Under the pieces are notes generated by a model. That model did no database searches. It had not been told where the DNA came from and saw only the letters and a program-made list of their open reading frames with translations. The translations under genes were made by a program, and so were the position numbers. DNA of 60,000 nucleotides, taken from Botryllus schlosseri. Lineage: Eukaryota. Location of the stretch: NCBI GenBank assembly GCA_051294905.1, contig CM119371.1, positions 1,800,001 to 1,860,000 on the forward strand, written 5' to 3'. Every line of letters starts with the position of its first letter. Position 1 is the stretch's first letter. This document shows, one piece after another, positions 15,162-51,874 of the stretch.

Positions 15162-15271
15162 TTGCACGCCAAATTTGCCTCAATTCCAACCAGCATTTCG
15201 TTCATATTGTGGATTTCGCACTGTCAGTAAACTTTTCATTTGACATTTTACCGCTTGTAGCCTACTTTATA

Positions 15272-16485
15272 GGATTACCAGTGAACCCGTCCCTCGGTGA
15301 ACCCGTCCCGTGAACCCGTCCCTCGGTGAACCCGTCCCTCGGTGAACCCGTCCCTCGATGAACTCGGCACCTCCGGCAACCCTAATATCCCCCTCCCCCA
15401 ACCCTAATATCCCACCCCCGGCAACCCTAATATCCCACCTCCGGCAACCCTAATATCCCACCTCCCCCTACCCTAATATCCCACCTCCCCCAACCCTAAT
15501 ATCCCACCTCCCCCAGCCCTAATATCCCACCTCCCCCAACCCTAATATCCCACCTCCACCAACCCTAATATCCCACATCCGGCAACCCTAATACCCTAAC
15601 CCTAATATCCCACCTCCGGCAACCCTAATGTCCCCCTCCGGCAACCCTAATATCCTAACCCTAACCCTAATATCTCACCTCCGGCAACCCTAATATCCTA
15701 CCCCAACCTTAATATCCCACCTCCCCCAACCCTATAATATCCCACCTCCCCCAACCCTAATATCCCACCTCCGGCAACCCTAATATCCTAACCCTAATAT
15801 CCCACCTCCGGCAACCCTAATATCCTAACCCTAATATCCCACCTCCGACAACCCTAATATCCCACCTCCGGCAACCCTAATATCCTAACCCTAACCCTAA
15901 TATCCCACCTCCACCAACCCTAATATCCCCCCTCCCCCAACCCTAATATCCTACCCGAACCCAATGTCCCACTCCCCGAACCCTAATGTCTTCCCCCCCC
16001 CTACCCTACCCAACCCTAACACCCCACCTCAACCTACAGTTGCAACAACGAGCAGACCACGCGTGGTTGATATGTGAGCAATAACAATCGTTGGGATATA
16101 TTTTTCATCTGAACAAGTCACACACAATATACAATGCGATAAGACCCAATGCGATGTCATGAACAGATACGAGGATGTCGAACGTCGCACGTTCGCCCCT
16201 CGCCAAGTCAATTCAACAATGAGCCGACCACGCAATCGTTATCACGTGATCTGATCACTCCGTGACTGCGTGATCTACGCATGCCCTGACCTCCTTACAA
16301 GATCGACAAATCAGTTGATAATAACATTATTAGTTTAATAATTCATATTAATACTTGTTAATACACTTAATTTCAAAATTTCCCGAGGGCGGAATTCACC
16401 GAGGGCGGAGTTCATCGAGGGACGGGTTCACCGAGGGACGGGTTCACGGGACGGGTTCACCGAGGGACGGGTTCACTGGCAACCC
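15272..16485. mobile_element. Foldback-like DNA element with tandem-repeat TIRs and an internal telomere-variant array
   Basis: Termini GGATTACCAGTGAACCC / GGGTTCACTGGCAACCC; arms of about 90-100 bp made of 16-bp units GTGAACCCGTCCCTCG; duplicated target TTTATA (or CTTTATAG); paralogous empty site at about 27300-27315. Confidence 0.9.
15368..16028 (+). repeat. Minisatellite of about 23-bp units CCCTAATATCCCACCTCC(GGC/CCC)AA with interspersed AACCCT hexamers
   Basis: Directly visible tandem array; each unit contains CCCTAA (TTAGGG on the minus strand). Confidence 0.95.
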
Positions 16486-17254
16486 TTTATAGGTCTACCG
16501 TTGTAGACGGCCCATTGTCTAGTCATTGTGAATAATAAACATTCAATTGAAACAAATAGGTCGACATGATGGTATGCTCAACGTACCGCAATATCCTAAC
16601 TTAAGCAAGACTGCGTAGGCATAGCATGGTTCTTATATCAAGAAGGGTTGTACTACTACACATTTTAATTATTTCTACCATAATGCGCAGTGCAACTACT
16701 TCAATTCTTCATAGGGCCAGATTTTGGTCAAATGAGTCTTTTCATGTAAAAATTTGTGAGTTATTGAGGCGGAAAATTATTTACAGGCCAAACTACTCAG
16801 TAAGGACAGACAGTCCCAACCATGAGTGAAGATAAGTAGTAGCCCACAGTTCTAACGTTATAATTTGCATATGTTACGTCGAATTTGATCAAAATTAATA
16901 TTTTTAGGTCAAAAAATATCAAAATTTTGATTATTTAGGTCAACATCTTTCATTTTTTAGGTACTAAATGTCAACTTAGTTAAACCCATACATGGGATCA
17001 AACTCTCCTTCGGGATTGCCAGCATTCTGATTGCATTTGTGATATGACGATAAAGGAGGAGAGGAGTGAAATTTTTCACTATCAAAAGGGGAGCGTGTCA
17101 AAAAAACTTTTAGAACAGCCGTTCTAGATCTAATTGAAGTTGCAAATTTAGCGAAACGAGTACAGATTTTGGAGATCCAGTAGTTTGGTAAAGTCTGGTT
17201 ACGGTGCCGGAGTAGTGATTTGCAATTACGTTAGATATGAACGAGTTCACCTAC

Positions 17255-29919: not shown

Positions 29920-32900
29920 CTACAGCGGTAGTCATGAAGTCACACATATGTTGACAGACAGACTTGTGCAAACTATCATCCAGTTAGTGGGTGATCAACT
30001 AACCACTGATTATTTAGTAATTCTGGTTCTAGTTGCGGATTTCGGAAAGTGAAGAGTTTCAGTTGCGCATTTCAGAAAATAATTTGTTGTACAATGATTT
30101 GCGCACCGGTACTCAAATCTGAATCAAGTACCGTACCGTAATGATTCGAGTCGATCAGTGATAGGCGATTTTTTGGACTAATGAAACTTTACGCCCATTT
30201 CTATCGAAAAGTTATAATTGTACATCAACTTTCTGAAACCTCGATTAGTTGTATCCCAACATACGAAAAATATTGTACAAAGCTATGCACGTTAGCGTCA
30301 ATGACATTTCTGTGTAGCTGTGATCGCAAAGCCAAATGAAGTATTTTCGAAAAATACCAAATCATCATTATGTGGTGAAGAGCCGGCCTTATGTTTCGTA
30401 GTTGCATGAAAAGTAGGCTACATACTCAAGCTTTTGGGTCTCCCATATACTTATATCATCATCATGAGTGATTATAATCACATATATCATATATCAAATA
30501 CTCGACGTGAAGCCTAATTCAGAATAGAATCACTCATGCACTATGTCTTCACTCATGTAAGTCTAGTAATTACGAGCAAACCTTTTTCCTGCATGATTTT
30601 GCCTCCAGCATCATCGTCCATCGGTAATTCCATTTCAAGTCAACAACACAGTGACCCACTAGGTCTCAGATTTTCATGTCATTTTAGGAGTGAATCTGGT
30701 ATCTAACACTGAGGGTAGAAAACATGTTTTTTTCAATATTCATGCACTGAAACCATTTTGTGCTCACTCAACGATGAAGTTTAATTACCGGTACCGTAGT
30801 TTTATATATTCCCTGTTACAGTACGGTCATAAAACAGTGTACCGGTATTAAAGTAGTTAAGAGCGGATGATGGCTTTTAATAACAGAATACAAGAAACTC
30901 TTGATATTGGAGGGAAAATTTTCAACAAACAAATGGAGTCAGGGGTCAATATCAGTCTTAATAGCCTACCCCTTTCAATATCCATCAAGCGTGACACAAA
31001 CTTGGAATATTTTAAGCGCTATTCTGTCTACATAAAAGTTGGAAGCAGCTTGTTATATGAAAGCTGGTTTGGGAGAGAAATATGACTGACATGTTTTGCC
31101 TAATAATATGTAATTGGTAGACTAATAGACCTAGTCTAAATCAACTTCATACATAGATACTTCCGACTCCAATCTGTAATTCAATTTCAGATCAAACAAA
31201 AATTAGATTGGGTATCAATAAAGTTTCAGATTTTGCAAATATTTGGATCAAGACATTATGAAGTATGAGTTGATATGATTAAAAAGCAATTTATTTTAAC
31301 GGAATTACCGGTATGCCAACATGAGCGTTATCAGGTTATCCCATTAAAAAAAGCTTTTTCTGCTTATTTAACCTTGAAATGAAAGTTTTTCAAGCTGATT
31401 TGAAATTGTCTGTAAATGAGATACTTTGGCAATAAATAGTTGTTCTTGTTGTTATGTTACATAAGTTGATTGATTTTATCATGCAAGAGTTGAGGTAATA
31501 ATTTCAGGTACACAGCCCCTGATGTCTCCCTCTTCTTTCTGTCTATATCGTAGGCCTACTTCAAAAGTTTTGTGAAGGTTGTCACATGAATTCTGTTGCA
31601 ACATGGAGCATGTACTTAAGTAATGAGTTAGATGCCAAAATTCTGTAACTAGAATATGGAGCATAATTTTCAGCTAAATCACAACATTTTTATAATCTGA
31701 AATATTCCCTGTAGTCCAAGTTCGTAAGTAAATATTACATAAAAATTCCTTTCCTAAAGATTCTATGCAGCAGGTATTATACGGCACTATTTACCAAAAT
31801 ATTCAGGCAAACAGAAATGATAGGGAGAGTTATGAAATATTTTTACACGCAGCGATTTCCATGGGCTTCACCTTCAGCTACATTCTTGGCAGGGCACCAA
31901 AGATGAATATTTTCTCACTAGCTTGGTGAATTCACCAATTTATACAACATGCCAACATTCTCAGGTATAATTAGCTCATTTATAGAGAAAAAAGTTCAGA
32001 TCTCCATAAAAACAGCACTTGGATTTCACGGTTAAATGAGCAGAAAGCTTGTTTTCATCACGCGATAACTTGAAAACTTCATTCAAAATGGATACCGGTA
32101 GCTCAGCTATAGCATTTTACAAGGTGATGAGTCGAATTTCAGCAAAATCTGCAACTTGATGGAGACCGAATTTCTTTTTGGTTCATTTCACATAGAATTA
32201 GCCTACCTATATACAGCAGTCACAAACAATCCAGTAAGCTGGCTTGATCATGGCTTAAGGTTCAGCTTAATCAGACTTGCAGCATCATTTTACATTCAGT
32301 AATTGCATTCTCAAGTGAGGCAGGAACGAACGATCGATACTCCATGGAAACTCGCAAATCATGTTTGATAGAAGCTGTAAGCCAATATGTTATCGGTGTC
32401 TCGTACGGACTAAAGAGTCTACTGAATACACACAGGTGTGAAGCAAGACGCTGAGAACTGTCTTGGCACACCAAACATATTACTCTAAACGTATCAGGAT
32501 TCCATTTTTGGGCATAAACACTTCTTCCTTGGCGAGAGCGATTTTCAGAGTCCGGGGTTACCGGTATTGACTATCAAGCCATGTTACCATTTCCAAAGAT
32601 TTCACATCACACCAAACCTTTCGTAACAAACAGATGCAGCCAGAGGCCATCACAATTTCGAGTTGGTAACCTCTATTCCTATCGATATACCAAGACTGTA
32701 CTATTGTATGTGAGCATAGTAGAAGCGCGAAACGGTATGCCAATAAAGCACTGGTCTACAATCAATAAACGCTTTACCGAGTAATATAAGTGAATCAGCC
32801 TGTACTCTGAAACATATTAGCTATATCTCAAACGTCCGATCGAATTAAAACTGATATTAGTAAACTCAATCAGCTGATTTCACTCCATGTTTTGACTCAG

Positions 32901-33346
32901 AGCCATTCATGCACGTGAGACATTAGCTCCACCACGCGGAAGAATGAAAGGAGTTAAATCGATAACATCATGCAGTTCGATATTACATTTCCTTCATAAC
33001 ATATTTGGTTTGTCATCTCTCCTAATTTTATTCTCCTGTACATGTCGTTATCATCGGATTAGTCGATAAAGCGCACACTCGAATAGGGTTCGTAATATAA
33101 GCATTTAAAAAAACTATACTGCTAGAATAGTTAGGAGCCATCGATGCATGACGTCCTTGGAAGCCGAGGAGACCGCTTGCCTAGTAACCACTGTATATCT
33201 CGTTTTGCACTTTGCCCTATGCCAGGGGCGGGCAACTTGTCCGGTCAGTGAGCTGCATATGGGAAAATTAGGCACTTGGCGGGCAAGGTTACAGAATATA
33301 TACAATTATATATTATACCTTAATCGCGTATTTATCCACCGCTACA

Positions 33347-33707
33347 AGGAATCAATTGTGTTTAACACCAGCTATCCGACAGTCGTCGAGCATGTCCGCA
33401 TTCAAGTCGAAATACAAGCAATTTCTCCTAAATCAATACTAGCCAGTCTTCGGGATTACCGGACCACGACCTAACATCGACCTCGCCCTTCGCCACATGC
33501 CACCTCATTTTGTCGCTTGCGTCTTATATTCTCTGCATTACTTTTCAGTCAGTGTCCATGCCTCTTATTTATTTCGCCTAGGCTAAGGTTGGTGACTGAT
33601 CTTAATGGCTGCTTCAAGTTGTTTCGACACCTTTCTATCTTCGCATTGTATCGCAGTCTTGTGATGTTTTGAAACGATGAAAATATTAATAAACCTGATT
33701 GATTGAT
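33347..33707 (+). mobile_element. 3' fragment of a CR1/L2-group LINE
   Basis: Reads RNQLCLTPAIRQSSSMSAFKSKYKQFLLNQY* (typical ORF2 end, WNxLPxxIRxSxSxxxFKxxLKxxLL), then a 3' UTR ending AATAAACC(TGAT)n. Confidence 0.72.
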
Positions 33708-33901
33708 GTAAACTTCAAGTTTAAAGCATTGAGATCAAAAAGAGTATTTCATGAATTTATTTACAACAGCTATTGAAGTCAATTAGACATCTATGGTCAC
33801 TCAATACTAGTTTTTTGAACTCTGATTGCATGTCATATGCAAAAACCCTTAGTGAAGACTGCTAATGTTCGTGGAAGTGTTGGGATTTAGTCACTGCCTT
33901 C

Positions 33902-34230
33902 TGCAGCAATTAGAGCTTATTGTCTCTGATGATCTGTATAAAAGTACAGCTAACCAATCGTCTTGGTGCTCGGCTATACAATACTTATCTCGAGAAGCTG
34001 TTGCCTTGGGTGAAGTTCTTCGTACCAGATATTTGCTCAATACAATGGTTTATTCGACGTTGATGCAGTAGTAGCGTATAGAGTCTCAATCATAATAAAG
34101 GTAATCTCTAACACGTGTTACCTACACTTATATAGAAGTCTCGACTCTCGAGTAATCACAACGAGAAGTAGTTTCTTATTCGAGACATAGTGAAATATCA
34201 TGGGCGAGTGATCACAGCGTTATCACTGCA
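33902..34230 (-). repeat. 3' LTR (329 bp)
   Basis: TGCAGCAATT...TATCACTGCA; repeated at 39699-40027. Confidence 0.95.
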
Positions 34231-36309
34231 TTATCTCTACTTGAAAAGGGAATTAATTAGGAATAATTAAGGGAAAAGCCAATTAGATTATACGACCATG
34301 AATGACAAAATCGATTTACTATGTCGAATACAAGTTTTGGTACAGAAAGGTCACCCCGTCCCCATTAAAAAAAAATCGGTTAGTCACAACTACGAGTAAG
34401 GACTTAATTTCAACGACCATTTAGTAATTACATGAAATGTTGTCAACAACTACAATGAATTAGGCCTGTACAGTTTCAGCTTAAGTATGAGAAGTTGCAA
34501 GAGTAAGGTTTTATACTGCATTTCTAATATACAAGTTACCCGAAATGGAATAACACAAAACAATTTAATCCTAAGCAAAAAGTAAGCATAAACAAATACA
34601 AATTCATCCACGTGACAGCCCAAATCATCATGAGTGGTACCGCCGCTGTTCACGTGAAGGCAAAATTAACTTCAGTGTGTGACCGGTATATATACAATAG
34701 TGGCCAGTTCAAACATTGCAATATCTCGGTCGATATTGTGACTTAGAGTAACCAACATACTCAAGTCCGCGTAAACTTCAGTTTCGGGCCGTGGCCCATA
34801 TGCACCAGTGTGTTCCTGGTCAGTGAAATTCGTACAAAATCTCGATCGATAATGTACCATAGAGATATCAACATATCTCGATGTTTCCGGCGTACAACTT
34901 GTTACTCAATTCCAGTGTGCCTGCACTGTCGTGCACATGCAGGTTTCCTGTGGGGTCTGGCATCGTCTCGGTTTGTAAGAACTGCGTAATTTTCGTCTGC
35001 GATTCATCCTTTGTCTGATTGACACAGACTTCAGCGTATATAGAGCTCACTTAGACGCTGTGCGGGGTTGCAGATTCGACGTGGCTACGTACGCGTGTTG
35101 GCGCTGTCGAGTCTTCCAATGATCGCAAAATTGGGATATCGTCGGTCGGTTAAATCGATCGTTCGCGGTATATTGGTACAGTTACACCGGTGGAATAGCG
35201 GCGAACTGTTGCTGTGCGACTGTTGATGTGAGACGGCACTTGGTGTCAGAATCGTCCCGAAGTATATTATTGCCAGATCGTTGTTTTTGAGCTGATCGAA
35301 ATCGTTTCGATGAATTTGCACACATGAGTAGAAGCGTACGCCGGAACGCGGAAGTGTGGACGACGGACACGTATATTTTCGTCAATTCTGTAAAAACCTC
35401 ACGACAGCATGACGCAGAAAGGGAATATACTAGCACGATTATAACTAGCACAAAATAATGAATCCAAGCATGAAATAAAATACAAATTCTAACCCTAAGC
35501 AACCAGTCTGAGAAGGCGTACCTAAGTAGTACGGTGTTAGCAATATCAGAAACAATTTTAAAAACAATAAGGCACGCTGTTCCCATACAGCGTTGCAAGC
35601 AAGGGGTCAATCACTGGCGACTGCGGAAAAAAAATGTAGGGAGCAGACGCGCGAAAAATATTTTGCACGTGGCGAAAGAAAATGCAATATGGACAGGAAG
35701 TCTGGTAACTAGCGAACTCCTAATGTAAGTCAAAACATGTCTGTTAAATTGCGATCCAAGTAATAAATTCTCGGTGCAGCCGGGGTAATGATTTGCGTAA
35801 TCTTGACAGCGGATGTGCGATTGATAGGTACTGCTGAGTTTTGTAACGTGAATTCCAAACAACTCATCACAATAAGTCAATCAACTCGATAGAAATGATA
35901 AAACAACGCGTTATGGCGTTGTACAGAATTGATATTAATTGTTAATCGAGTCATTATAAGACTGTTAAAGTACGTAAATATGTTACAAACTTGAAAGATA
36001 CATTATAAGCCTGCTCACTCAATGGTTGTTTATTGAAATTTATATCGAAACTGAAATTTAATGGGCGTTTCAAGGGCTTAACAATGTGGAAATACACGTT
36101 TTTCTGATAGTCGTCTTTATGCGGAGTAATTATCTCAGCAATTGCAACATGTGGTTGAAGTACGGGATAACGCTCAGTAATGCTACATGTACGCACGCGA
36201 TGCCGTGAAATATAAAAGTAGGGTAGCGTTAGTAAGTTATGAATGAAATATAGCTGAATAATGAAATTATTATTAAAAAACAGATAGCAAAGCTAAATCA
36301 TGCTACAAA

Positions 36310-37447
36310 CAGAGGTGGTAAAAGTAGTCAAGAAAGTTACTCAGTAGAAGTAGAAGTAGCGACGAAAAAAATCAACCCAAGTACGAGTAGAAGTACTTCT
36401 TCCATAAGCAACTTAAAACTACTTGAAGTAGAAGTAGAATTGACTGACTTTAAATCTACTCAAGTAAATAAGTAGTTGTGAAAACGATCGTAATTCGCTC
36501 ACATGGATTCTCAAAACGTGTAAATCGAGCTATGTGGAAGGTACCGAGCTTGATTCATATTGATGCATACCAGGAGGTATCCAATTTTTGACAGCACAGG
36601 CATTCGTCAGCATCATGGGATTGAAATCATAGTATTGATATGTAAATGCGATACTAATCCTATGTTTACTCGAACAGCACGTTTTAGAAAACATCATGGT
36701 ATGACATTATCCCCCATATTATAAGGCCTGCGGTTTTAGTCGAAGAGCAATACGGAGAAGCTGTATTGGATACGCTTTAAACACTTTGTGCGATCCGTAA
36801 ACGTTAATAAAAAAATATAGTGGACCGTAAAAATGCCATATTGTGTAGCTTTATTTCCGGAAATTAAAGGCATTACTACACTTGCTTTACTACTTCAACA
36901 TGTATGTTATCCAGACAAAAGAACTGATGTTAATTAGAACTCAAAGTATATGATACTGGGGATTGAAAATGAAATATTAAATGCTACTTCTAAAAGCGTT
37001 TTTAGTCCGGAAAGTTTCGAAGGTTGGTATGCTAAAACATCTCTAAAACTAAAAAAAATCAAAGTCCACTTTTCCAGATTAGAACACGACATGGACTGCT
37101 AGATTACAATATGATAAGTAAATGCTAGATTGCGAAACATCCGTTTCAAACGTTATGACGAGCGGGGCGAAGTGCGACAACGCGGTGCTTTACTCAACTT
37201 GTATGAAAATTAAGTGTTGATACTTCGTGAAAACATCCCCGGAATTTCTCAGGCTATCTTCCTGATTGAAGGATTAAACTACTTCTACTTGACAAACTGA
37301 AAATAGCGAAAAGTAAGTAAGTAGATCACAAAGTATTATGAAATAGAAGTAGCGAAAATCAGATGTACGTGAGTAAGTATCAGAAGTAGAGGAAAACGAT
37401 TCGAGTAAATCGAAAAAAGTAGAAGTACTCGTTACTGACCACCTCTG
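36310..37447. mobile_element. hAT-type MITE, family D (CAGAGGTGGT termini, AGTAG repeats), nested in the LTR element
   Basis: CAGAGGTGGT...ACCACCTCTG; perfect TSD GCTACAAA (36302-36309, 37448-37455); decayed relatives near 43619, 45610-46187, 50290-50475 and 50705-51620. Confidence 0.9.
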
Positions 37448-38901
37448 GCTACAAAGCACGGCCTCGGTAATTACAAATAGTCCCGAAGGCGTGTCATATT
37501 TCAATCTTGCACGCTTATACATTGATGTGTAACATGTGGAGCAAATTGTAGAAAAAAAATTCAAACAGGGAGTCATGCCCTATTACGTCAGGCCAACAAG
37601 CAAACCAGATAGCGTTTAGGAGTGGCGGAATAGATGCTCTGTGCACAAGGTCTGGCGCGTAATCGAAAACAAATGAAGGATTTATTAGAAATGTAAGTGA
37701 GTAATTACAATATCAGTCAAACTCACATTGATCATGGCATGATGTTATCATATACAGAGGAGTGAGAGGGCTGTTATGTGTCTGTAAATATATGAAAGCT
37801 GAAAGGCCTATGAAATCCCTTTTTGAAATGCCGTCAGACTACCATTACTCAATGTGGAGTTACGAATGGGTTCTTTGAATGAAAGATGCGTCATTATGGA
37901 CGATCGGTAAAAGTACAATATTCGGGCAAATTAGCATAATTTCGGTTAGATAATAATGGTGGAACCGAATGATGATTTCAGGCGATTATATGCTGAACAA
38001 GAAATTTGTATTGCAAAATTACACTTCCTTGCTAAAGCGTTACGAAATTTAAGAAACCGTTGTGTTAGAATCAGCGGAACATGCACGTGCACGTGGCGAT
38101 ATAATCGAAAGCTGAAAACCACATAGCGTTTTGTGATAAGGTTTCCGTTAACGCATCAAAAATAAATTTCCGAACTAGAGTATTTCGTAATATTCACGGT
38201 CCGTTATCTATGAATCCAAACCAATGTACGCTGTTCAGTTATTATTCGACTGAACAAGATATGACATATTAAATAGCGAATTTTATAATAGGTCTAGAGC
38301 TGAGATAAGAACATCACGGCCGTAATGTTAATAATATTTAAAGTCACCGATAACACCTTAACTTAGCGGAGGCCATTAAGCTATGAAGGTTGATAAAAAT
38401 GCGTTGTAGGCATAAAGGATGCCGCTCGACATTACATTCAATGGATATAAATCCGACACGAGACTGCGGTACTGGTCAAAGGTTCTATCGTATAGACACA
38501 GGAATGATCGCAAAGAGGCCCGCCTTAGCCCCGGTCCGTTCAATCTGCAGGTTTATTCGGACCAGGAAGCGTTATGCTCTGAACTTCTTCATCCCGCCTC
38601 TACACGCACCCGGGTCGAACGAATGCCAGCCCCCGATTTCTCGCATCCCAATTCAATATACAATGGGAGTTGCCGTGTAATTGCATAAATCGGTGATATT
38701 TTCTCAGTAAATGTGGGACATAATTCCATTCTTAGCGTATGGTAATCCCATAAGATATAGTGCTTAACGAATTCAACGATTGAGGGATAAGTTAATTTGA
38801 TCTGTGCACAAGATAAATCCCATATTAACGAATTCAAGCAAAAGATACCTAAGACCTGATTCACATTCGACCATATCTTAGCGTAATATTTTGGTTGGAA
38901 A

Positions 38902-39450
38902 TCATAGATTAGTCGTACGGCGAGCGGTATTCAAATGTATTGCGCTCGCATATTTATTCCTCTCAGGAAAACCAGCGTCGGCACGCTGGACAAAGGTCAA
39001 CAGTTCCCGTATGATAGTATATAATATGTAGTACATGTAGTATGTAATGCGCTTCATTTTGTCAACAACCAAAGTCATTTGCCTTTGCGCGTCAGTCATA
39101 TATTGTCTCAGAAAAGCTGAGCTATCATTTACTGACGGCGCGACACAATTTTGAACGGAAAGGCGATTTGATTCTTGCGGGTCGACGATAGTCGAATTTT
39201 TCGCAATGTGCGCTGATAGCCCCGGCTGTCCGGAGAAATTGGCCGCGTTATTTTGACCAATTTTAGCAATTAGATTAATTTTTGCTTCGCCTAAATACGT
39301 AGGCTCGTTTATAGCAAAGCTGATAGTGAAAGCGTGCCCAATTCTTTCATCGGCAATACCGAGTAAAGCTACTTCGTGCTTAACATCTTTAGCGTGACCG
39401 ATTTCAGAGTCTAGTACCATCTCCGCTGGTTGCATAGTTTTACTCGCCAT
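38902..39450 (-). CDS. Hypothetical 182-aa protein at the gag position of the LTR element
   Basis: Longest ORF in the window; ATG about 250 nt downstream of the 5' LTR and in the element's inferred sense; no domain recognised. Confidence 0.5.
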   Translation of the reverse strand: MASKTMQPAEMVLDSEIGHAKDVKHEVALLGIADERIGHAFTISFAINEPTYLGEAKINLIAKIGQNNAANFSGQPGLSAHIAKNSTIVDPQESNRLSVQNCVAPSVNDSSAFLRQYMTDAQRQMTLVVDKMKRITYYMYYILYTIIRELLTFVQRADAGFPERNKYASAIHLNTARRTTNL

Positions 39451-39698
39451 TTAGACACTTTAGTAAACACTTGTCTATGACAAATATCGAATATGTTACG
39501 ACAAAACAACAATAACACTTCAAAAATCACTAACACATACACAATTCAATAGGGTCAGCTGTCATGATCGTTTTCAACAGAAATTGACAATTAAAAACGT
39601 GTACCGTGTTCGTCCGTGAAGAATGTCCTTGTCGTCGATAGCAAAAACGTCAGTCTCAGTATTGAAGTTGTATACCCGAACGACTTTCTCAGGGCCCA

Positions 39699-40027
39699 TG
39701 CAGCAATTAGAGCTTATTGTCTCTGATGATCTGTATAAAAGTACAGCTAACCAATCGTCTTGGTGCTCGGCTATACAATACTTATCTCGAGAAGCTGTTG
39801 CCTTGGGTGAAGTTCTTCGTACCAGATATTTGCTCAATACAATGGTTTATTCGACGTTGATGCAGTAGTAGCGTATAGAGTCTCAATCATAATAAAGGTA
39901 ATCTCTAACACGTGTTACCTACACTTATATAGAAGTCTCGACTCTCGAGTAATCACAACGAGAAGTAGTTTCTTATTCGAGACATAGTGAAATATCATGG
40001 GCGAGTGATCACAGCGTTATCACTGCA
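39699..40027 (-). repeat. 5' LTR (329 bp)
   Basis: Identical by eye to 33902-34230; followed on the minus strand by TGGGCCCTGAGAAAG at the PBS position. Confidence 0.95.
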
Positions 40028-42616
40028 CTTCGAATCACAAGTCATCTCGAATCATTGCACATTTTGACTCGAGTCAAGTCAAGTCACTCGATTTTTGGAG
40101 GTCAGCCGAGTCAAGTCAAGTCAAGTTGAAATTTCAAAGTACTAGATATGATTCTAATTCATTACTAGGGCGATTTTTTTTGACACTTCAAAAGAAGTCA
40201 AATTCTGTTTTACATAACGAGTTTGATTTATTTAGCTGTTCATGTGTAAATCACACTAGCATGTAACGTAGTTACTCCCGCCATTTACCGACTTCAAAAA
40301 TCTAGCGTGATTCGGCTATAACTCGTTTTGTGTTCACAATAGGGAACACTTTCTTCTTAAGACTGATAGAAACATGTTTTGGCAGCTTTCATGACCCCAT
40401 GACTAGTGGTTGTCGAGATGGGCAATTTCACCCCCTCTCGCACAGACATTGGGTAATACCGGCTGGAAAATGGAGGCAGTCCCCTAAAACCAATTTTTAT
40501 TGAAGTTTCAAGTCATTTTTCGGAACTTGAAAACCCCCTTTTTAGGATTTGAAAAAAAGTCATTTTCACTCCACCCTACGACGCATGCCTATTAACATTC
40601 CAACATTTAACGACAAATGACGATACATATTCTCACATCTTCACCAAGTAGCTACCTACCTCTCATTCGAATTAAGTTCTGACACACGAAGCAATTGTCT
40701 GGCATATATCCAGATTGCTATACAATCTTTTGTCAAATTGTTCGCGTTAAATAAACCAAAGTAAATGCAAGGCTCAAATAACTGATTAATATTTATTTCA
40801 AATCGATTCTATACATTTCATAACATGAAAACGCAGCCCAATACAACATAAAATCACGGAAATTTCAGCCACTACTCTCTAAGTCTAAGATGCAGATACT
40901 GATTAGCAGTCATTGACAATACTCTTGAGTTATAATGAGTTGCGGATAATGTCAGTATAATTGCAAGTTAGTCACAATGGACGGTAAGCGTAATTTATAG
41001 AATGTCAAGTAGCAAATCATATTATCTCAGTAAAAAGGGAACATTGAATCACATCCATAAGATTATCTGAAATTTCGATTGTTATTGATTAACAATTTGC
41101 CTCTTTTACTGTTAACTATGGTGTATTTAAGTCATTGAGAATCAATTAATCACATATCAAAAGTAAACGAGGTCATCAAGAGAAATGAGCCAATTATATT
41201 ATTCTCGAAGCATTTATAAACACCAAGGTAGCAGAAAACTTGGTCATTGGTCATAGAAGTCAGAAAAAGCGTTGGCTCGAAGTACAGCGACCGTCATTCT
41301 AGAGAATAATATCAAGGTCATGAAATATCTTGCTAATGAAAGTTTTAAACTCGGTAAGTATACCTTTCAACACTCTCCTGAAGTCAACAGTACTAAAGAT
41401 ACAGAGAAAGATCACTAGATCATGATGGAGCATGGAGAATCATACATATTTGACATTACAATGGATTTCATATACTACACTACATTCATTTTCAACAAAA
41501 TTTTTAATTTCATATTTTTTTGGGTTTTTTGAAGTATTTAATTTCGATCATTATCCATCACACAAAACGTAAAGACAGTACACAGTACACAGTGCACATC
41601 TAAGAATATAACAATTTTTTTCATTTTTCCATATTTATGATTTTTATGTAATTTTAATTATAATCAATTATTTTATAGGTGTAGGACGATGTTATATATT
41701 TATTTTATCCCGCGAGTCGAACCCAACTTGCGAGTAAATCCTTATAATAGCAAACAATTCAACAGGATGACGGCTTGAACTCTACTGTAGTCAAACAACC
41801 TTCGCATTCAAAACCATTCAACCAGTAATTTGTGCCGTAAAACATTACTCTTCGGAAATATGTAGGTTCGACGTGACATATATGGCATTACCATTGTTTT
41901 CGTCGATTTGTGAAGCTTTATGCAACTGTTTTGGTTACTTAATTGTAAAATGCATATTAGAAATAGTTTCGTGAAATTTCATCGATTGAACATGAAATAG
42001 TCAGTTTGAATTCTAAAAGGAATAGCAGTAATTCTGCTCTGCACGTCTCCATTTTGTTGATGACGATTGGCTCTTGTACACGAGTAAAAATGTTGCATCT
42101 ACTGCCTTTTCTTCCACTCCCTGAAAAACAAATACCTCTGAATAAATCACTATCCCAGTTAATCAATTACGTCAGCAAACTATTCGGATAATGAGCAGAA
42201 AATTAACTGTTCGCACGGGTATGTCATAACAATGCACAAAATAGAATTCGACTTGCTGTAGAGTACCTGGGATCAGAGTCGGATGAATCGCAGGGATTGA
42301 ATCTACAGGACGATTCGGCATTTAAATTTTCGCGAGACGATTATCACGTATCATCGGCACACAATCTAATATACGGTAACATATTTAGTCAGTACACGAA
42401 TATCATGAAAATAAACCTGCAGACAACACATCGTATCGCGGGAGCGGTATTGGCTGGGACGGTGTACTTGTTGAGGACTTTGTTGACAGTTAACATTTCG
42501 ATTAGAGAAATTGCGGTGCTGTTAACAATATCGAGTATCAATGACACTCGAAAAGTAGTTCATCAGCTTGTTTTATGGAAAGCCTAAAATATTGGTGACG
42601 ATAAGCGTACTTCTGT

Positions 42617-43145: not shown

Positions 43146-44327
43146 ACTGGAAATTAATCTGATATCTTCTCGATTTGCAGCACAACTATTGAGCACATTC
43201 GAGACGAAGTTTACGAAAAATTTGTAAGTTGTCACATGCTATTACCTAAGAAAAGTATTCGACAACCAGTCCCAGTAATAATATTTGAAATGCACATACT
43301 CCAGTACTTATAAAACTTCATTTACACGATTGCTACATGCACCAGAGCAAAAAATGAACGGGATCATTCCAACTTCTGTTCGAGTTTAGTCAATGACTAT
43401 TTCGATAGTCTCTTTAAAAATTATGTGACAGCATATTACGACCAATAACTATATTTATTTCACCCCCAGCAGCTAAACATCCGGACGCATTAAATCTCAG
43501 TTTCATAATACAACAAATATTTCTCCCAATAAAATGAAATCTGTGTGGTCTAAATGCAGCAAGTGATCATGAATCGAAGTGACGCAATAATGCTGAAGAT
43601 CAACTTTAGTATATATTGACAGAGGTGGTCAGTAACCAACTAACTCCACTTTTTCAAAGTATAAAAGTGCGTTTTGCCCACTTACACTACTTACTTAAGT
43701 AGTTATTAGTTCAAACTACTTCTACTTCTATTTGACAACTTTCATTTTTTCAGCAAAACTAGGAGTGATGTGAAAAATATGTTGCGACTCGATCTGAAAT
43801 GATGCATGACAACGCTATTATATTCTTGCAGAATAAACAAAGTCTTTTTTCCATAAAGCTACGTGTGATGCACCGCGTGTCAACGTTATGATGGCACTAT
43901 TGGACACATCAGTTAATATTGTATATTAATTTAATTAATGCACAGTTTGCGTCTCAATATTTCTAAGCTGTTGTTTGAAACTGAATGTTTATGAGAATGG
44001 ATCGACGATGTAATGAAAAGACAAATCTCAACTCTCATTTTAGAACGGTCCTACTTCGTAACATCTACTCACCTAACATAAAACTTGCGGTCGAGTTCCT
44101 GCCATGCATCCGTATCTCGGAACACTGAAATAGGAAATAAGTTATATCGCTTAAAATGCTTGTTAGCAAAAGATGTCTGCATCCTATGAATTGCGCTCTG
44201 TTGCTGAGCCTATTGGGTAATATCTGAAACAGTCATCAGGCTCAAAGAGATTTGAAATATTCAAAAATATGAGTGAATTGTGACCAACAATACACAGTGG
44301 CTTAGTTTTGGTAAGTAAGCGTACAGA

Positions 44328-49841: not shown

Positions 49842-51874
49842 CTAAAATGCGAAAAACATTTATTCCCAGAATTTAAGATAGCTGCCTAAGGGATGATTAG
49901 GTTCAAAGTCATATGAAATGATAGGTAAATATAATTACGTTTAAAAATATTTTGGGAATAGAATCAGGAATCATACTTGATACTTTTTCCAGCAATTCTC
50001 AATCAACGACCAATCGATGTTTTCTTCTTCTTTTGTGCAATCGAGCAGGATCTTGCTTATCTGAACACAATTTTGATTTCAACAGGTAAGATGACATAAT
50101 TGCCTCGATGTTCTCCCATTTGAATAAATATTTATATAGGTAAAGTTCAATAGACCTACTGATTCATCAGAATTCTTCGGTTCTAGATAATGCATATGCT
50201 ACATCGGTTTCAGTCTCATTCCAGAGTTTGATATCTTTTAAAAATATATTTATGAATATTCTATCCATTGTACAAACGTATCTTATAGAAGGTGGTGGTC
50301 AAACTAGTCACCGTCAGTACTCAAGTAGAATTATCGTAGGCCTAGTTTTGCGTAAAAATGAAAACTGCCTAATAGAGGTAGTCTGAAATCTTATCTACTT
50401 GAGTACGTAGGACACGTAGATAAATCTACCTGAAGTATTACGACAAGTAGAGGTACTTCGTTACTGACCACATCTTGAAAAATGCTGTAAGGAACGCTGG
50501 ATAGCGTATGTAGCGATGTCGCTTATGTTTACGCAAAGGTTGAATTTAATCCGAACAGTAAAACATATTGGAAACTGCGTAAAAACTGGCACAGACAGAA
50601 GCATACCCTATTTTAAATTTTTTCTACCTGCTTTCGAAACCTAGATTTGGAGCAGGCATTGTTGCTTTTCACCTTAGACTACGCCAATGGATGAGCGCAC
50701 ATTACGAGATGATCAGTAACAATCTGCTTCTACTTCATAAAAGTACGTAGTTAATATAATGATTTCACTTATGAAATTGATGCAAAATTATGCCTGAAAG
50801 GGGCACAGCACTCTAAAAATGATGTGGTCTCAAATTGAAGGGCATAACGAAAATAAAAAATTGGCTGCAGCCATTTTCTTCAGAACGCCGCCATAATGGA
50901 GCTGTAATTTATTGAAATTTCCACAGGAACTTCACGCACCAGCAGTCATGCAGGGATCGAACTTTATTTAGTGGTCAGCCAATGTTATGAAGGAAATATG
51001 TCGTACATGTCAAGGTGGTTTAGATACCGCGTTCAACGGAAGATGCTCAGTGAGGAGATTTATTTCAAAACCAGGCCTAGTGTATTCTATTTCTTCAGGA
51101 CAGAAATAGCTGATGCTCAACAATTTTCTTATAAATAAACAACATTTTATGCATAAGAATAGGACATGATTTTAGACTACTTTCACGCAAAATTGCTTAC
51201 TTTTCACGGATTGGATTTTGAGAAATAGAAAGTGGTTTTGTGTTACGTTTGCATCACTGCGATGTGTGAAATCGTCTCAAAAAATCGCAATAGACATCAT
51301 GGTAACTGTTGAATCTAATTTCCAAGATTATACAAATTTGCAATAATAATCGTTTTTATTTACTCGCAGAGACTAATCTTGTAATTTACAAAGTAACCGC
51401 TAGCGATAAATCACCAAACACTTACGAACGATCGACCAAAACTACTTTTCGAAACTCAAGTACTTACAAAGGTACTTTTCAAACTTGTCACTTTCTACCT
51501 CCACTTGAAGTAGTTTTAATACATTGTGGACACATCTACTTCTACATATAATTGCATATAAAATTGAAATGTTACCCCTACTTCCTCACGATTAACAAGG
51601 CTGACTACTTTCACCACATCTATGTACGATCGAGACTCGACTCGCAATACTAGAGATGCAAGTAGAGTAGAAATTGAGAATGCAAGTTTTTGTCGAACAG
51701 TGATGAGCTGATTTGAAATTTCGAAATACAAATCCTCTACAAATCCAGAATTAATTTTGTGTTAACTCCAAGTCCAAATCCGATAACGGCTGAAATTTGT
51801 CCAAAAGTAACATGTCATTGAACAATATCAGGAAATAACAAAAACAATAATATTACAGGAAATGTATTTAATAC

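Follow-up and report, generated by a model that had tools for sequence, protein, structure and literature searches.

A recently inserted LTR retrotransposon without detectable pol in the genome of Botryllus schlosseri

In a 60,000-nt stretch of the Botryllus schlosseri genome (the window), a long terminal repeat (LTR) retrotransposon of 6,126 bp was found that has inserted recently and in which no coding capacity for reverse transcriptase (RT), RNase H, or integrase is detectable (Table 1). With good confidence, we assign this recent insertion to a small, non-autonomous family of low copy number that is probably derived from Ty3/gypsy elements, the one clue to this ancestry being the length of its target-site duplication (TSD), as a TSD of 4 bp points to Ty3/gypsy. 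The enzymes for its mobilization are most likely borrowed in trans from a pol-bearing relative. Young LTR families without pol are a type that homology-based annotation leaves unclassified, and the element represents a well-formed case of one from an invertebrate.

Table 1. Features of the element and its insertion site (positions within the window).
Feature	Position	Strand	Remarks
Host repeat (high-copy MITE-like family)	33876-33901 and 40032 to ~40145		split by the insertion; unsplit paralogues in the window
TSD, left copy	33898-33901		CTTC; single in empty paralogous host repeats
3' LTR	33902-34230	-	329 bp; TATA-like 34134-34128; AATAAA 34054-34049
Polypurine-tract position	34231-34242	-	purines 10/12; short U-run before
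Stop-poor stretch	34453-35880	-	one frame has 6 internal stops over 476 codons
TSD of nested element, left	36302-36309		8 bp, GCTACAAA
Nested non-autonomous DNA transposon (MITE)	36310-37447		1,138 bp; TIR begins CAGAGGTGGT; very high copy
TSD of nested element, right	37448-37455		8 bp
113-codon open stretch	38592-38930	-	overlaps end of ORF1 in another frame; composition not clearly protein-like
ORF1	38902-39450	-	182 aa; ATG ~250 nt after 5' LTR (gag position); predicted long helix 108-159
Primer-binding-site position	39681-39698	-	starts TGG immediately after 5' LTR
5' LTR	39699-40027	-	329 bp, identical to 3' LTR; TATA-like 39931-39925; AATAAA 39851-39846
TSD, right copy	40028-40031		CTTC; single in empty paralogous host repeats

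Terminal repeats, target site, and orientation

The LTRs are direct terminal repeats of the TG...CA type (TGCAG...CTGCA) that match in 329 of 329 letters, with a divergence below 0.91% at 95% confidence, and the repeat extends on neither side. A sequence-only reading of this locus had taken two identical LTRs of this length as the sign of a recent event, and the alignment bears this out. When joined, the flanks align through the insertion point with other copies of the host repeat (7130-7013 with 88% identity over 118 nt, 18879-18753, and 22185-22127), the last two of which carry CTTC once only, so that the CTTC duplication proposed in the same reading is real. At 4 bp it is of the integrase type and lies within the 4-6 bp of LTR retrotransposons; the empty-site state is here read from paralogous host repeats within the window rather than from an empty allele. 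Loose contig or read ends were seen in the host repeat at 40028 (run X1) and 40048 (run X23).

The interior measures 5,468 bp, in line with the earlier estimate of about 5.5 kb, and its longest ORF (stop-to-stop, 39450-38902, minus strand) has the 182 aa stated there. About one fifth of the interior (1,146 bp) is taken up by a nested MITE, which we take to be of the hAT type from its 8-bp TSD; the interior without it amounts to 4,322 bp and the element to 4,980 bp. Summed contig depth in X1, which does not equal copy number, reaches 2.5-4.7 x 10^5 over the MITE vs 286-1192 elsewhere in the interior. The locus is thus a dated nest of three layers, with the host MITE outermost, the LTR element inside it, and the hAT-type MITE innermost, and insertion polymorphism is likely here.

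The minus-strand orientation of the element follows from the TGG at the primer-binding-site (PBS) position, the purines at the polypurine-tract (PPT) position, a TATA-like box followed by AATAAA, and the ATG of ORF1, which all lie on that strand. In the single-cell reads of X23, the two bins that consist mainly of LTR gave strand signals of 112.8 vs 0.43 and 52.8 vs 2.6, falling towards the PPT side (8.3 and 1.4), and LTR RNA of the family is thus found on the minus strand. A T-rich tract and TTTATT under the two flank peaks are consistent with a 3'-end library and minus-strand RNA; another RNA run, X21, gave 0 matching reads and is uninformative. The plus-strand orientation was also weighed, since the hexamer of the TATA-like box is its own reverse complement and reads from a library of 5' ends would point to the other strand. 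ORF1, the TGG, the purines at the PPT position, and the priming sites in the flanks led to its rejection. A sister version of the family is likewise purine-rich before its 3' LTR, and its different purine tract at the LTR junction appears as the loose end of 182 reads in X23. Orientation, nested MITE, and non-random ORF1 had all been missed in the sequence-only reading.

Beyond the TGG, we know of no cytosolic tRNA end that matches the PBS position, and the window contains no tRNA genes. Self-priming of the Tf1/sushi type, in which the PBS pairs with the beginning of R in the same element, was rejected on either strand: the best perfect Watson-Crick match between PBS and LTR is 7 nt, and the duplex energies are no better than with shuffled LTRs (p 0.40-0.97 on the minus and 0.20-0.94 on the plus strand). 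The 18-mer at the LTR/PBS junction was found at 16 loci in metagenome contigs, all 16 of which match over just 18-25 nt, as expected by chance.

Coding capacity of the interior

The sequence-only reading had reported no RT, RNase H, integrase, or protease motif, and three kinds of search agree with it. When all six frames were compared with Pfam with stops read as X, a check of the kind that had been proposed for degenerate pol, no family was found at E<=1, at a sensitivity for decayed pol that is uncalibrated. The three minus frames gave two matches alone in the PDB (E 0.31 and 2.1), and a scan for seven motifs found no YxDD, CCHC, HHCC, TDAS, or NG-x-x-ER, its yield being three short plus-strand matches (two GP[FY] and one DSGC) without context. 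Outside the element, Pfam searches with all 69 ORFs of at least 72 aa gave weak matches for three proteins, all under the cut-off.

ORF1 is non-random: its length was equalled in 7 of 1000 shuffles, and its composition is protein-like (z up to 4.0). It is at the same time an orphan by all searches run, as judged from its sequence. No Pfam family was matched, word-indexed searches confirmed none of 90 near candidates and none of 548 at longer lengths, the Atlas offered no usable match and low recognition, and neither of two pattern matches in IMG/VR was confirmed. A single-sequence AlphaFold model reached a mean pLDDT of 48, a value at which the absence of BFVD matches at E<=0.001 (0 of 40) is meaningless. 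A recognizable Gag domain was accordingly found in none of Pfam, the PDB, the Atlas, the protein collections, and BFVD. The sole match of an exhaustive phmmer search (E 3.6e-4), a repetitive bacterial beta-strand protein with PPC domains, was rejected as a sum of weak repeat matches. Position and ORF statistics make a highly diverged Gag, either short in itself or truncated, the likeliest identity of ORF1, at about even chances; ORF1 may or may not extend into the 113-codon open stretch.

Towards the 3' end, a stretch of 386 codons holds 4 stops, the fewest of all windows of that length scanned (median 23), the window length having been chosen post hoc. Three family indels within the wider stop-poor stretch have lengths that are multiples of three. 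Its composition is mostly not protein-like, and searches with this frame confirmed none of 2077 candidates, gave no Pfam family, and left the Atlas blank for a 77-aa piece. It is possible, though we lean against it, that the stretch is what remains of a second ORF on the 3' side. ORF1 and the stretch are in a common frame register, which has a chance of one in three.

Family copies and competing explanations

Contigs and reads of public runs were matched to the element at 90% identity or more, a level at which a more distant partner is invisible. In both X1 and X6, runs from separate studies of which X1 may be the source sample, contigs cover each of the 11 interior bins that contain neither LTR nor MITE sequence, and the interior exists in two versions, one near-identical and one diverged by 5-9%. 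The element therefore belongs to a small, low-copy family and is not a single decayed copy. Among the 16 pieces listed out of about 93,000, on which these differences rest, 7 of the 10 interior pieces differ by 0-2 letters and 3 by 5-9%, and all 6 pieces from the flanks by 2-9%. Instead of further insertions, the near-identical pieces could represent this one allele as carried by other animals; none of the 15 joints listed out of 175 bridges an LTR-flank junction or an empty site. Depth next to the LTRs exceeds that of the centre (18-22 vs 8-14 in X6, 821-1192 vs 286-677 in X1), as would be expected if relatives have the ends but not the middle in common.

For such a family, transcription by Pol II would start in the 5' LTR and end past the AATAAA of the 3' LTR, giving an RNA that would retain the primer site, leader, PPT, and LTR tips as cis signals. 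The pol-bearing relative would supply RT/RNase H and integrase, allowing packaging, reverse transcription, and integration of this RNA, and reverse transcription by its enzymes would regenerate identical LTRs, with the nested MITE as a presumed passenger. The same trans-mobilization is implied by an unlikely alternative, in which the LTRs flank mostly host or other-element DNA captured through template switching, with ORF1 and the 3' stretch as cargo instead of gag. Retroelement homology is found nowhere in the interior, the centre has less depth than the ends, and the three in-frame indels of the 3' stretch fit cargo as well; however, a host-gene homologue was not found either, and ORF1 begins at the usual gag position. 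That an ordinary autonomous element decayed in place is very improbable and largely refuted. Although the interior without the MITE leaves room for a compact gag-pol and the shared frame register would suit it, the identical LTRs allow too little time for pol to decay past recognition, neither a pol motif nor an HMM match was obtained, and the same pol-less interior recurs in the two separate studies. We give least credence of all to an assembly artefact or two solo LTRs lying by chance around unrelated DNA. Consensus polishing can yield complete identity, and the junctions are known here without long reads, but a host repeat is restored exactly at the outer junctions, where 4 bp are duplicated, PBS-like and PPT-like sites sit at the inner junctions, and the sister LTR-PPT junction occurs in RNA reads.

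LARDs of the original type have a non-coding interior with conserved RNA structure. A strict reading of this kind, with the interior retained for its RNA secondary structure and ORF1 open by chance, is improbable. In its favour are a length above 4 kb without a recognized domain, an interior known in two diverged versions, folding z-scores below -2 in 5 of 40 element windows vs 1 of 25 controls, and the low Atlas recognition and missing homologues of ORF1. Against it, the mean folding z of the element (-0.33) equals that of the controls (-0.24), the strongest window is a control, Rfam gave nothing at the gathering score (one best match at E 0.32), and the length and composition of ORF1 are not those of chance. 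Single-sequence folding thus revealed no excess RNA structure, and the earlier suggestion that the interior is conserved as RNA finds no support in it. In addition, the LTRs of 329 bp compare with ~4.4 kb in typical LARDs (PMC3532108). The "LARD-like non-autonomous family" of the sequence-only reading stands insofar as a young, pol-less family in two variants is concerned, while a non-coding LARD is too simple a label for an element with ORF1 and a nested MITE.

Comparison with known pol-less elements

By the operational rule (at least 2 kb in Inpactor, or more than 4 kb, without a recognized domain), the element falls among LARDs with or without its MITE, and it is of LARD class by size only, being closer to the gag-only families TR-GAG and Bik-2. 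It shares with LARDs (PMC3532108, PMC13570524, PMC6022998) a size above 4 kb, bounding LTRs, and the lack of a recognized domain, and differs in its short LTRs, non-random ORF, and unremarkable RNA folding. LARD calls also exist in an amphibian (PMC8498967). PbTRIM of harvester ants is likewise an invertebrate non-autonomous LTR element with a 4-bp TSD and near-identical LTRs but measures 480-781 bp, is non-coding, and has a tRNA-Leu PBS (PMC3532108). Tf1/sushi-type elements prime themselves, whereas here PBS-LTR complementarity is lacking on both strands and the site starts with TGG. Plant TR-GAG elements (PMC6022998, PMC13570524) have in common LTRs, a TSD, no RT, RNase H, or integrase, and one ORF at the gag position; the present element differs in an ORF1 unrecognized as Gag, an animal host, an extra 3' stretch, and the nested MITE.

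The zebrafish families Bik-1 and Bik-2 (BHIKHARI), likened here by description and not by homology, are also young, expressed animal LTR families without pol and with an inferred partner (PMC12067270). They are endogenous retroviruses with a recognized full-length Gag and hundreds of insertions (393 for Bik-2), while the family here looks low-copy. The "undescribed element" of the first reading may be kept for the family, which may already be present in some repeat library, but not for its kind, which is already well described. Young gag-only elements in zebrafish have developmental roles (PMC12067270, PMC13269885), and the present element would gain in importance if ORF1 were conserved and expressed or the primer non-canonical. 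It is unlikely, but conceivable, that the family is an LTR vector without pol that persists because of the cargo it carries, with an orphan ORF1 under purifying selection, a second 3' ORF intact in sister copies, cell-type-specific expression, and priming by some RNA other than a standard tRNA end or the element's own 5' end. If true, invertebrates would have their own counterpart of the gag-only elements of the Bik/ERNI type, with an unrecognized protein, or a new mode of priming would be at hand. A second 3' ORF is hinted at by the three in-frame indels together with a stop density that is the lowest of the window.

Insertion and target site

The element at 33902-40027 is a real, young, non-autonomous LTR retrotransposon of an already known kind. 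Its two 329-bp LTRs, described as identical in the sequence-only reading, show no mismatch when compared, and both start with TGCAG and finish with CTGCA. With 0 differences in 329 positions, their divergence lies below 0.91% at 95% confidence. The claimed CTTC target site duplication (TSD) is likewise present on both outer sides. It is not a chance match, because the joined flanks match, straight through the junction, unsplit copies of the host repeat at 7130-7013 (88%, 118 nt), 18879-18753, and 22185-22127, the latter two of which have a single CTTC. The insertion point lies roughly 25 bp into this common, MITE-like host repeat, whose unsplit form is also seen in the loose ends of X1 (a public run) and X23 (a public single-cell RNA run). 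The TSD length of 4 bp, common in Ty3/gypsy elements, is the sole pointer to a possible ancestry in that group.

Features of the element (window coordinates)
Feature	Position	Strand	Remark
5' LTR	39699-40027	minus	
3' LTR	33902-34230	minus	
PBS position	directly after 5' LTR	minus	starts TGG
PPT position	directly before 3' LTR	minus	U-run and tract with 10/12 purines
TATA-like box	LTR position 97, each LTR	minus	
AATAAA	LTR position 177, each LTR	minus	
ORF1	39450-38902	minus	182 aa; ATG ~250 nt past 5' LTR
3' stop-poor stretch	35880-34453	minus	
Nested TIR element	36310-37447		1,138 bp; perfect 8-bp duplication

Interior and family copies

The nested TIR element, which by its TSD length is presumably a hAT-type MITE, exceeds the remaining interior in depth by a factor of hundreds in the contig comparison; subtracting it leaves an LTR element of 4,980 bp. 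One piece from X6 (a public run from a separate study) overlaps the MITE end by 19 letters, which is insufficient for bridging. Relatives of the MITE's termini occur at 43620 and 50371-50475.

Of 1000 shuffles of the MITE-free interior, no more than 7 reached an ORF of 182 aa, the length of ORF1, or longer. Nowhere in the element is the composition more protein-like than in the first part of ORF1 (z 4.0, with generic residue frequencies). Protein-collection, IMG/VR, and Atlas searches returned no credible homologue, and the single-sequence structure model is poor except for a long helix at 108-159. The sole ORF1 variant among 40 of 686 rows listed, at 39370, is a synonymous third-position change, a single case that is no evidence of selection. 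The odds that ORF1 is a diverged or truncated Gag are about even. Just past it, at 38720-38890, lies a degenerate short direct repeat (41 nt, 78%), possibly a template-switch scar.

The 3' stop-poor stretch is a possible second ORF and a weaker feature than ORF1. In one minus frame its stop count of 4 is the lowest of any 386-codon window scanned (median 23), a window length picked after the stretch had been seen. In the rows listed (12 of 97 for indels, 15 of 175 for joints), the three family indels within it are all multiples of 3 (-3 at 35265, +3 at 35335, net -36 at 34784-34830), whereas the five elsewhere in the MITE-free interior are of 1, 4, 1, 2, and 1 bases. A composition that is mostly not protein-like and the lack of any homologue found count against a real ORF.

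Parts of 32500-41500 are contained in 20 of 24 listed public runs, four of which were compared with the window. All 11 LTR- and MITE-free interior bins are covered at no less than 90% identity in both X1 and X6. Among the 16 pieces listed of about 93,000, seven of ten interior pieces are 0-2 letters off the window over 128-357, three differ by 5-9% (37697-37848, 38695-38993, 39438-39595), and all six flank pieces differ by 2-9%. Two versions of the pol-less interior are thus present, one very young and the other an older sister, the pattern to be expected of a family that was already without pol when it was mobilised. X1 might itself be the source sample, and the pieces that are nearly identical may represent a single allele. 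Summed depth, which is not copy number, is lower in the central interior than in unique flanks (8-14 vs 17-55 in X6; 286-677 vs 1171-2090 in X1) and climbs next to the LTRs, hinting at low copy number and relatives sharing the ends.

Expression and proposed mobilisation

LTR RNA is a family-level signal. X23 reads in two mainly-LTR bins number 112.8 vs 0.43 and 52.8 vs 2.6 by strand, a strand call that would flip in a 5'-end library (the chemistry is unstated), and the level on the PPT side drops to 8.3 and then 1.4. Two adjacent host peaks fade away from TTTATT at 40792 and the T-rich tract 41500-41660 (45% T vs 31% in the window), as predicted by oligo-dT priming of minus-strand RNA. Since 182 reads run from the LTR into a purine tract differing from the element's own, a sister subfamily accounts for at least part of the expression, to which this copy may or may not contribute. 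We know of no standard tRNA end matching the PBS position beyond TGG. Self-priming was rejected, as the leader complement in the element's own LTR reaches at most 7 Watson-Crick pairs, with duplex energies no better than those of shuffled LTRs on either strand.

The observations comprise integrase-type ends flanked by a TSD, an insertion of recent date, further copies of the interior, family LTR RNA, and the absence of any detectable pol. We consider it quite probable that a transcript running from LTR to LTR would be packaged and copied by the RT/RNase H of a pol-bearing relative, which would also supply the integrase. A captured cargo between the LTRs, mobilised in the same way, is an unlikely variant; the lack of retroelement homology in the interior would suit it, and the gag position of ORF1 speaks against it. 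Of the LARD-like family mobilised in trans that had been proposed, the young, pol-less state and further interior copies stand, while a non-coding LARD is too simple given the non-random ORF1. A strict RNA-structured LARD is less likely still: folding z falls below -2 in 5 of 40 element windows against 1 of 25 control windows, but the mean (-0.33 vs -0.24) did not bear out the proposed conservation at the RNA level, and an Rfam search found nothing.

That an autonomous element decayed in place seems very improbable. The reported lack of RT, RNase H, and integrase held in a six-frame search (no Pfam family in 6/6 frames, read through stops as X, at a sensitivity uncalibrated by a positive control); PDB rows for the three minus frames appeared only at E 0.31 and 2.1, and a motif scan of the interior gave no catalytic pol motifs in context. 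An artefact is more improbable yet, next to outer junctions that restore the host repeat with a 4-bp duplication and the sister LTR-PPT junction in the 182 RNA reads.

In mode of working the element resembles LARD, TR-GAG, and Bik-type elements. Its size agrees with the operational LARD rule of PMC6022998 and PMC13570524, its 329-bp LTRs do not match the long-LTR type of PMC3532108, and without a recognised Gag it is not assignable to TR-GAG. PMC13570524 argues that these non-autonomous classes form a continuum, with many families lacking a traceable partner. Animal precedents include LARD calls in a caecilian (PMC8498967), PbTRIM in ants (PMC3532108), and the gag-only Bik-2 of zebrafish (PMC12067270; PMC13269885). 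The family may already be catalogued.

Surroundings in the window

MITE-like families are densely packed in the window, and the Pfam cut-off was reached by none of the ORFs outside the LTR element. Immediately left of the element, 33340-33707 is occupied by a repeat of about 370 bp and very high copy number that runs out into short TGAT repeats. It may be SINE-like or a retroposon 3' end; its strong X23 reads are on the strand opposite to the element (411 vs 32). A minus-strand host transcript (40684-42000) runs in the same sense as the element, and its probable polyadenylation signal, near 40792, lies some 770 bp upstream of the 5' LTR. At 15265-16492, an element of about 1.2 kb has 104-nt inverted arms (89%) built of 16/29-bp subrepeats, with TA-rich motifs at start and end, around a 640-bp array of 23-bp tandem units rich in telomere-like CCCTAA. 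CpG observed/expected is 0.96 across the window, and there is thus little sign of methylation-driven CpG loss.
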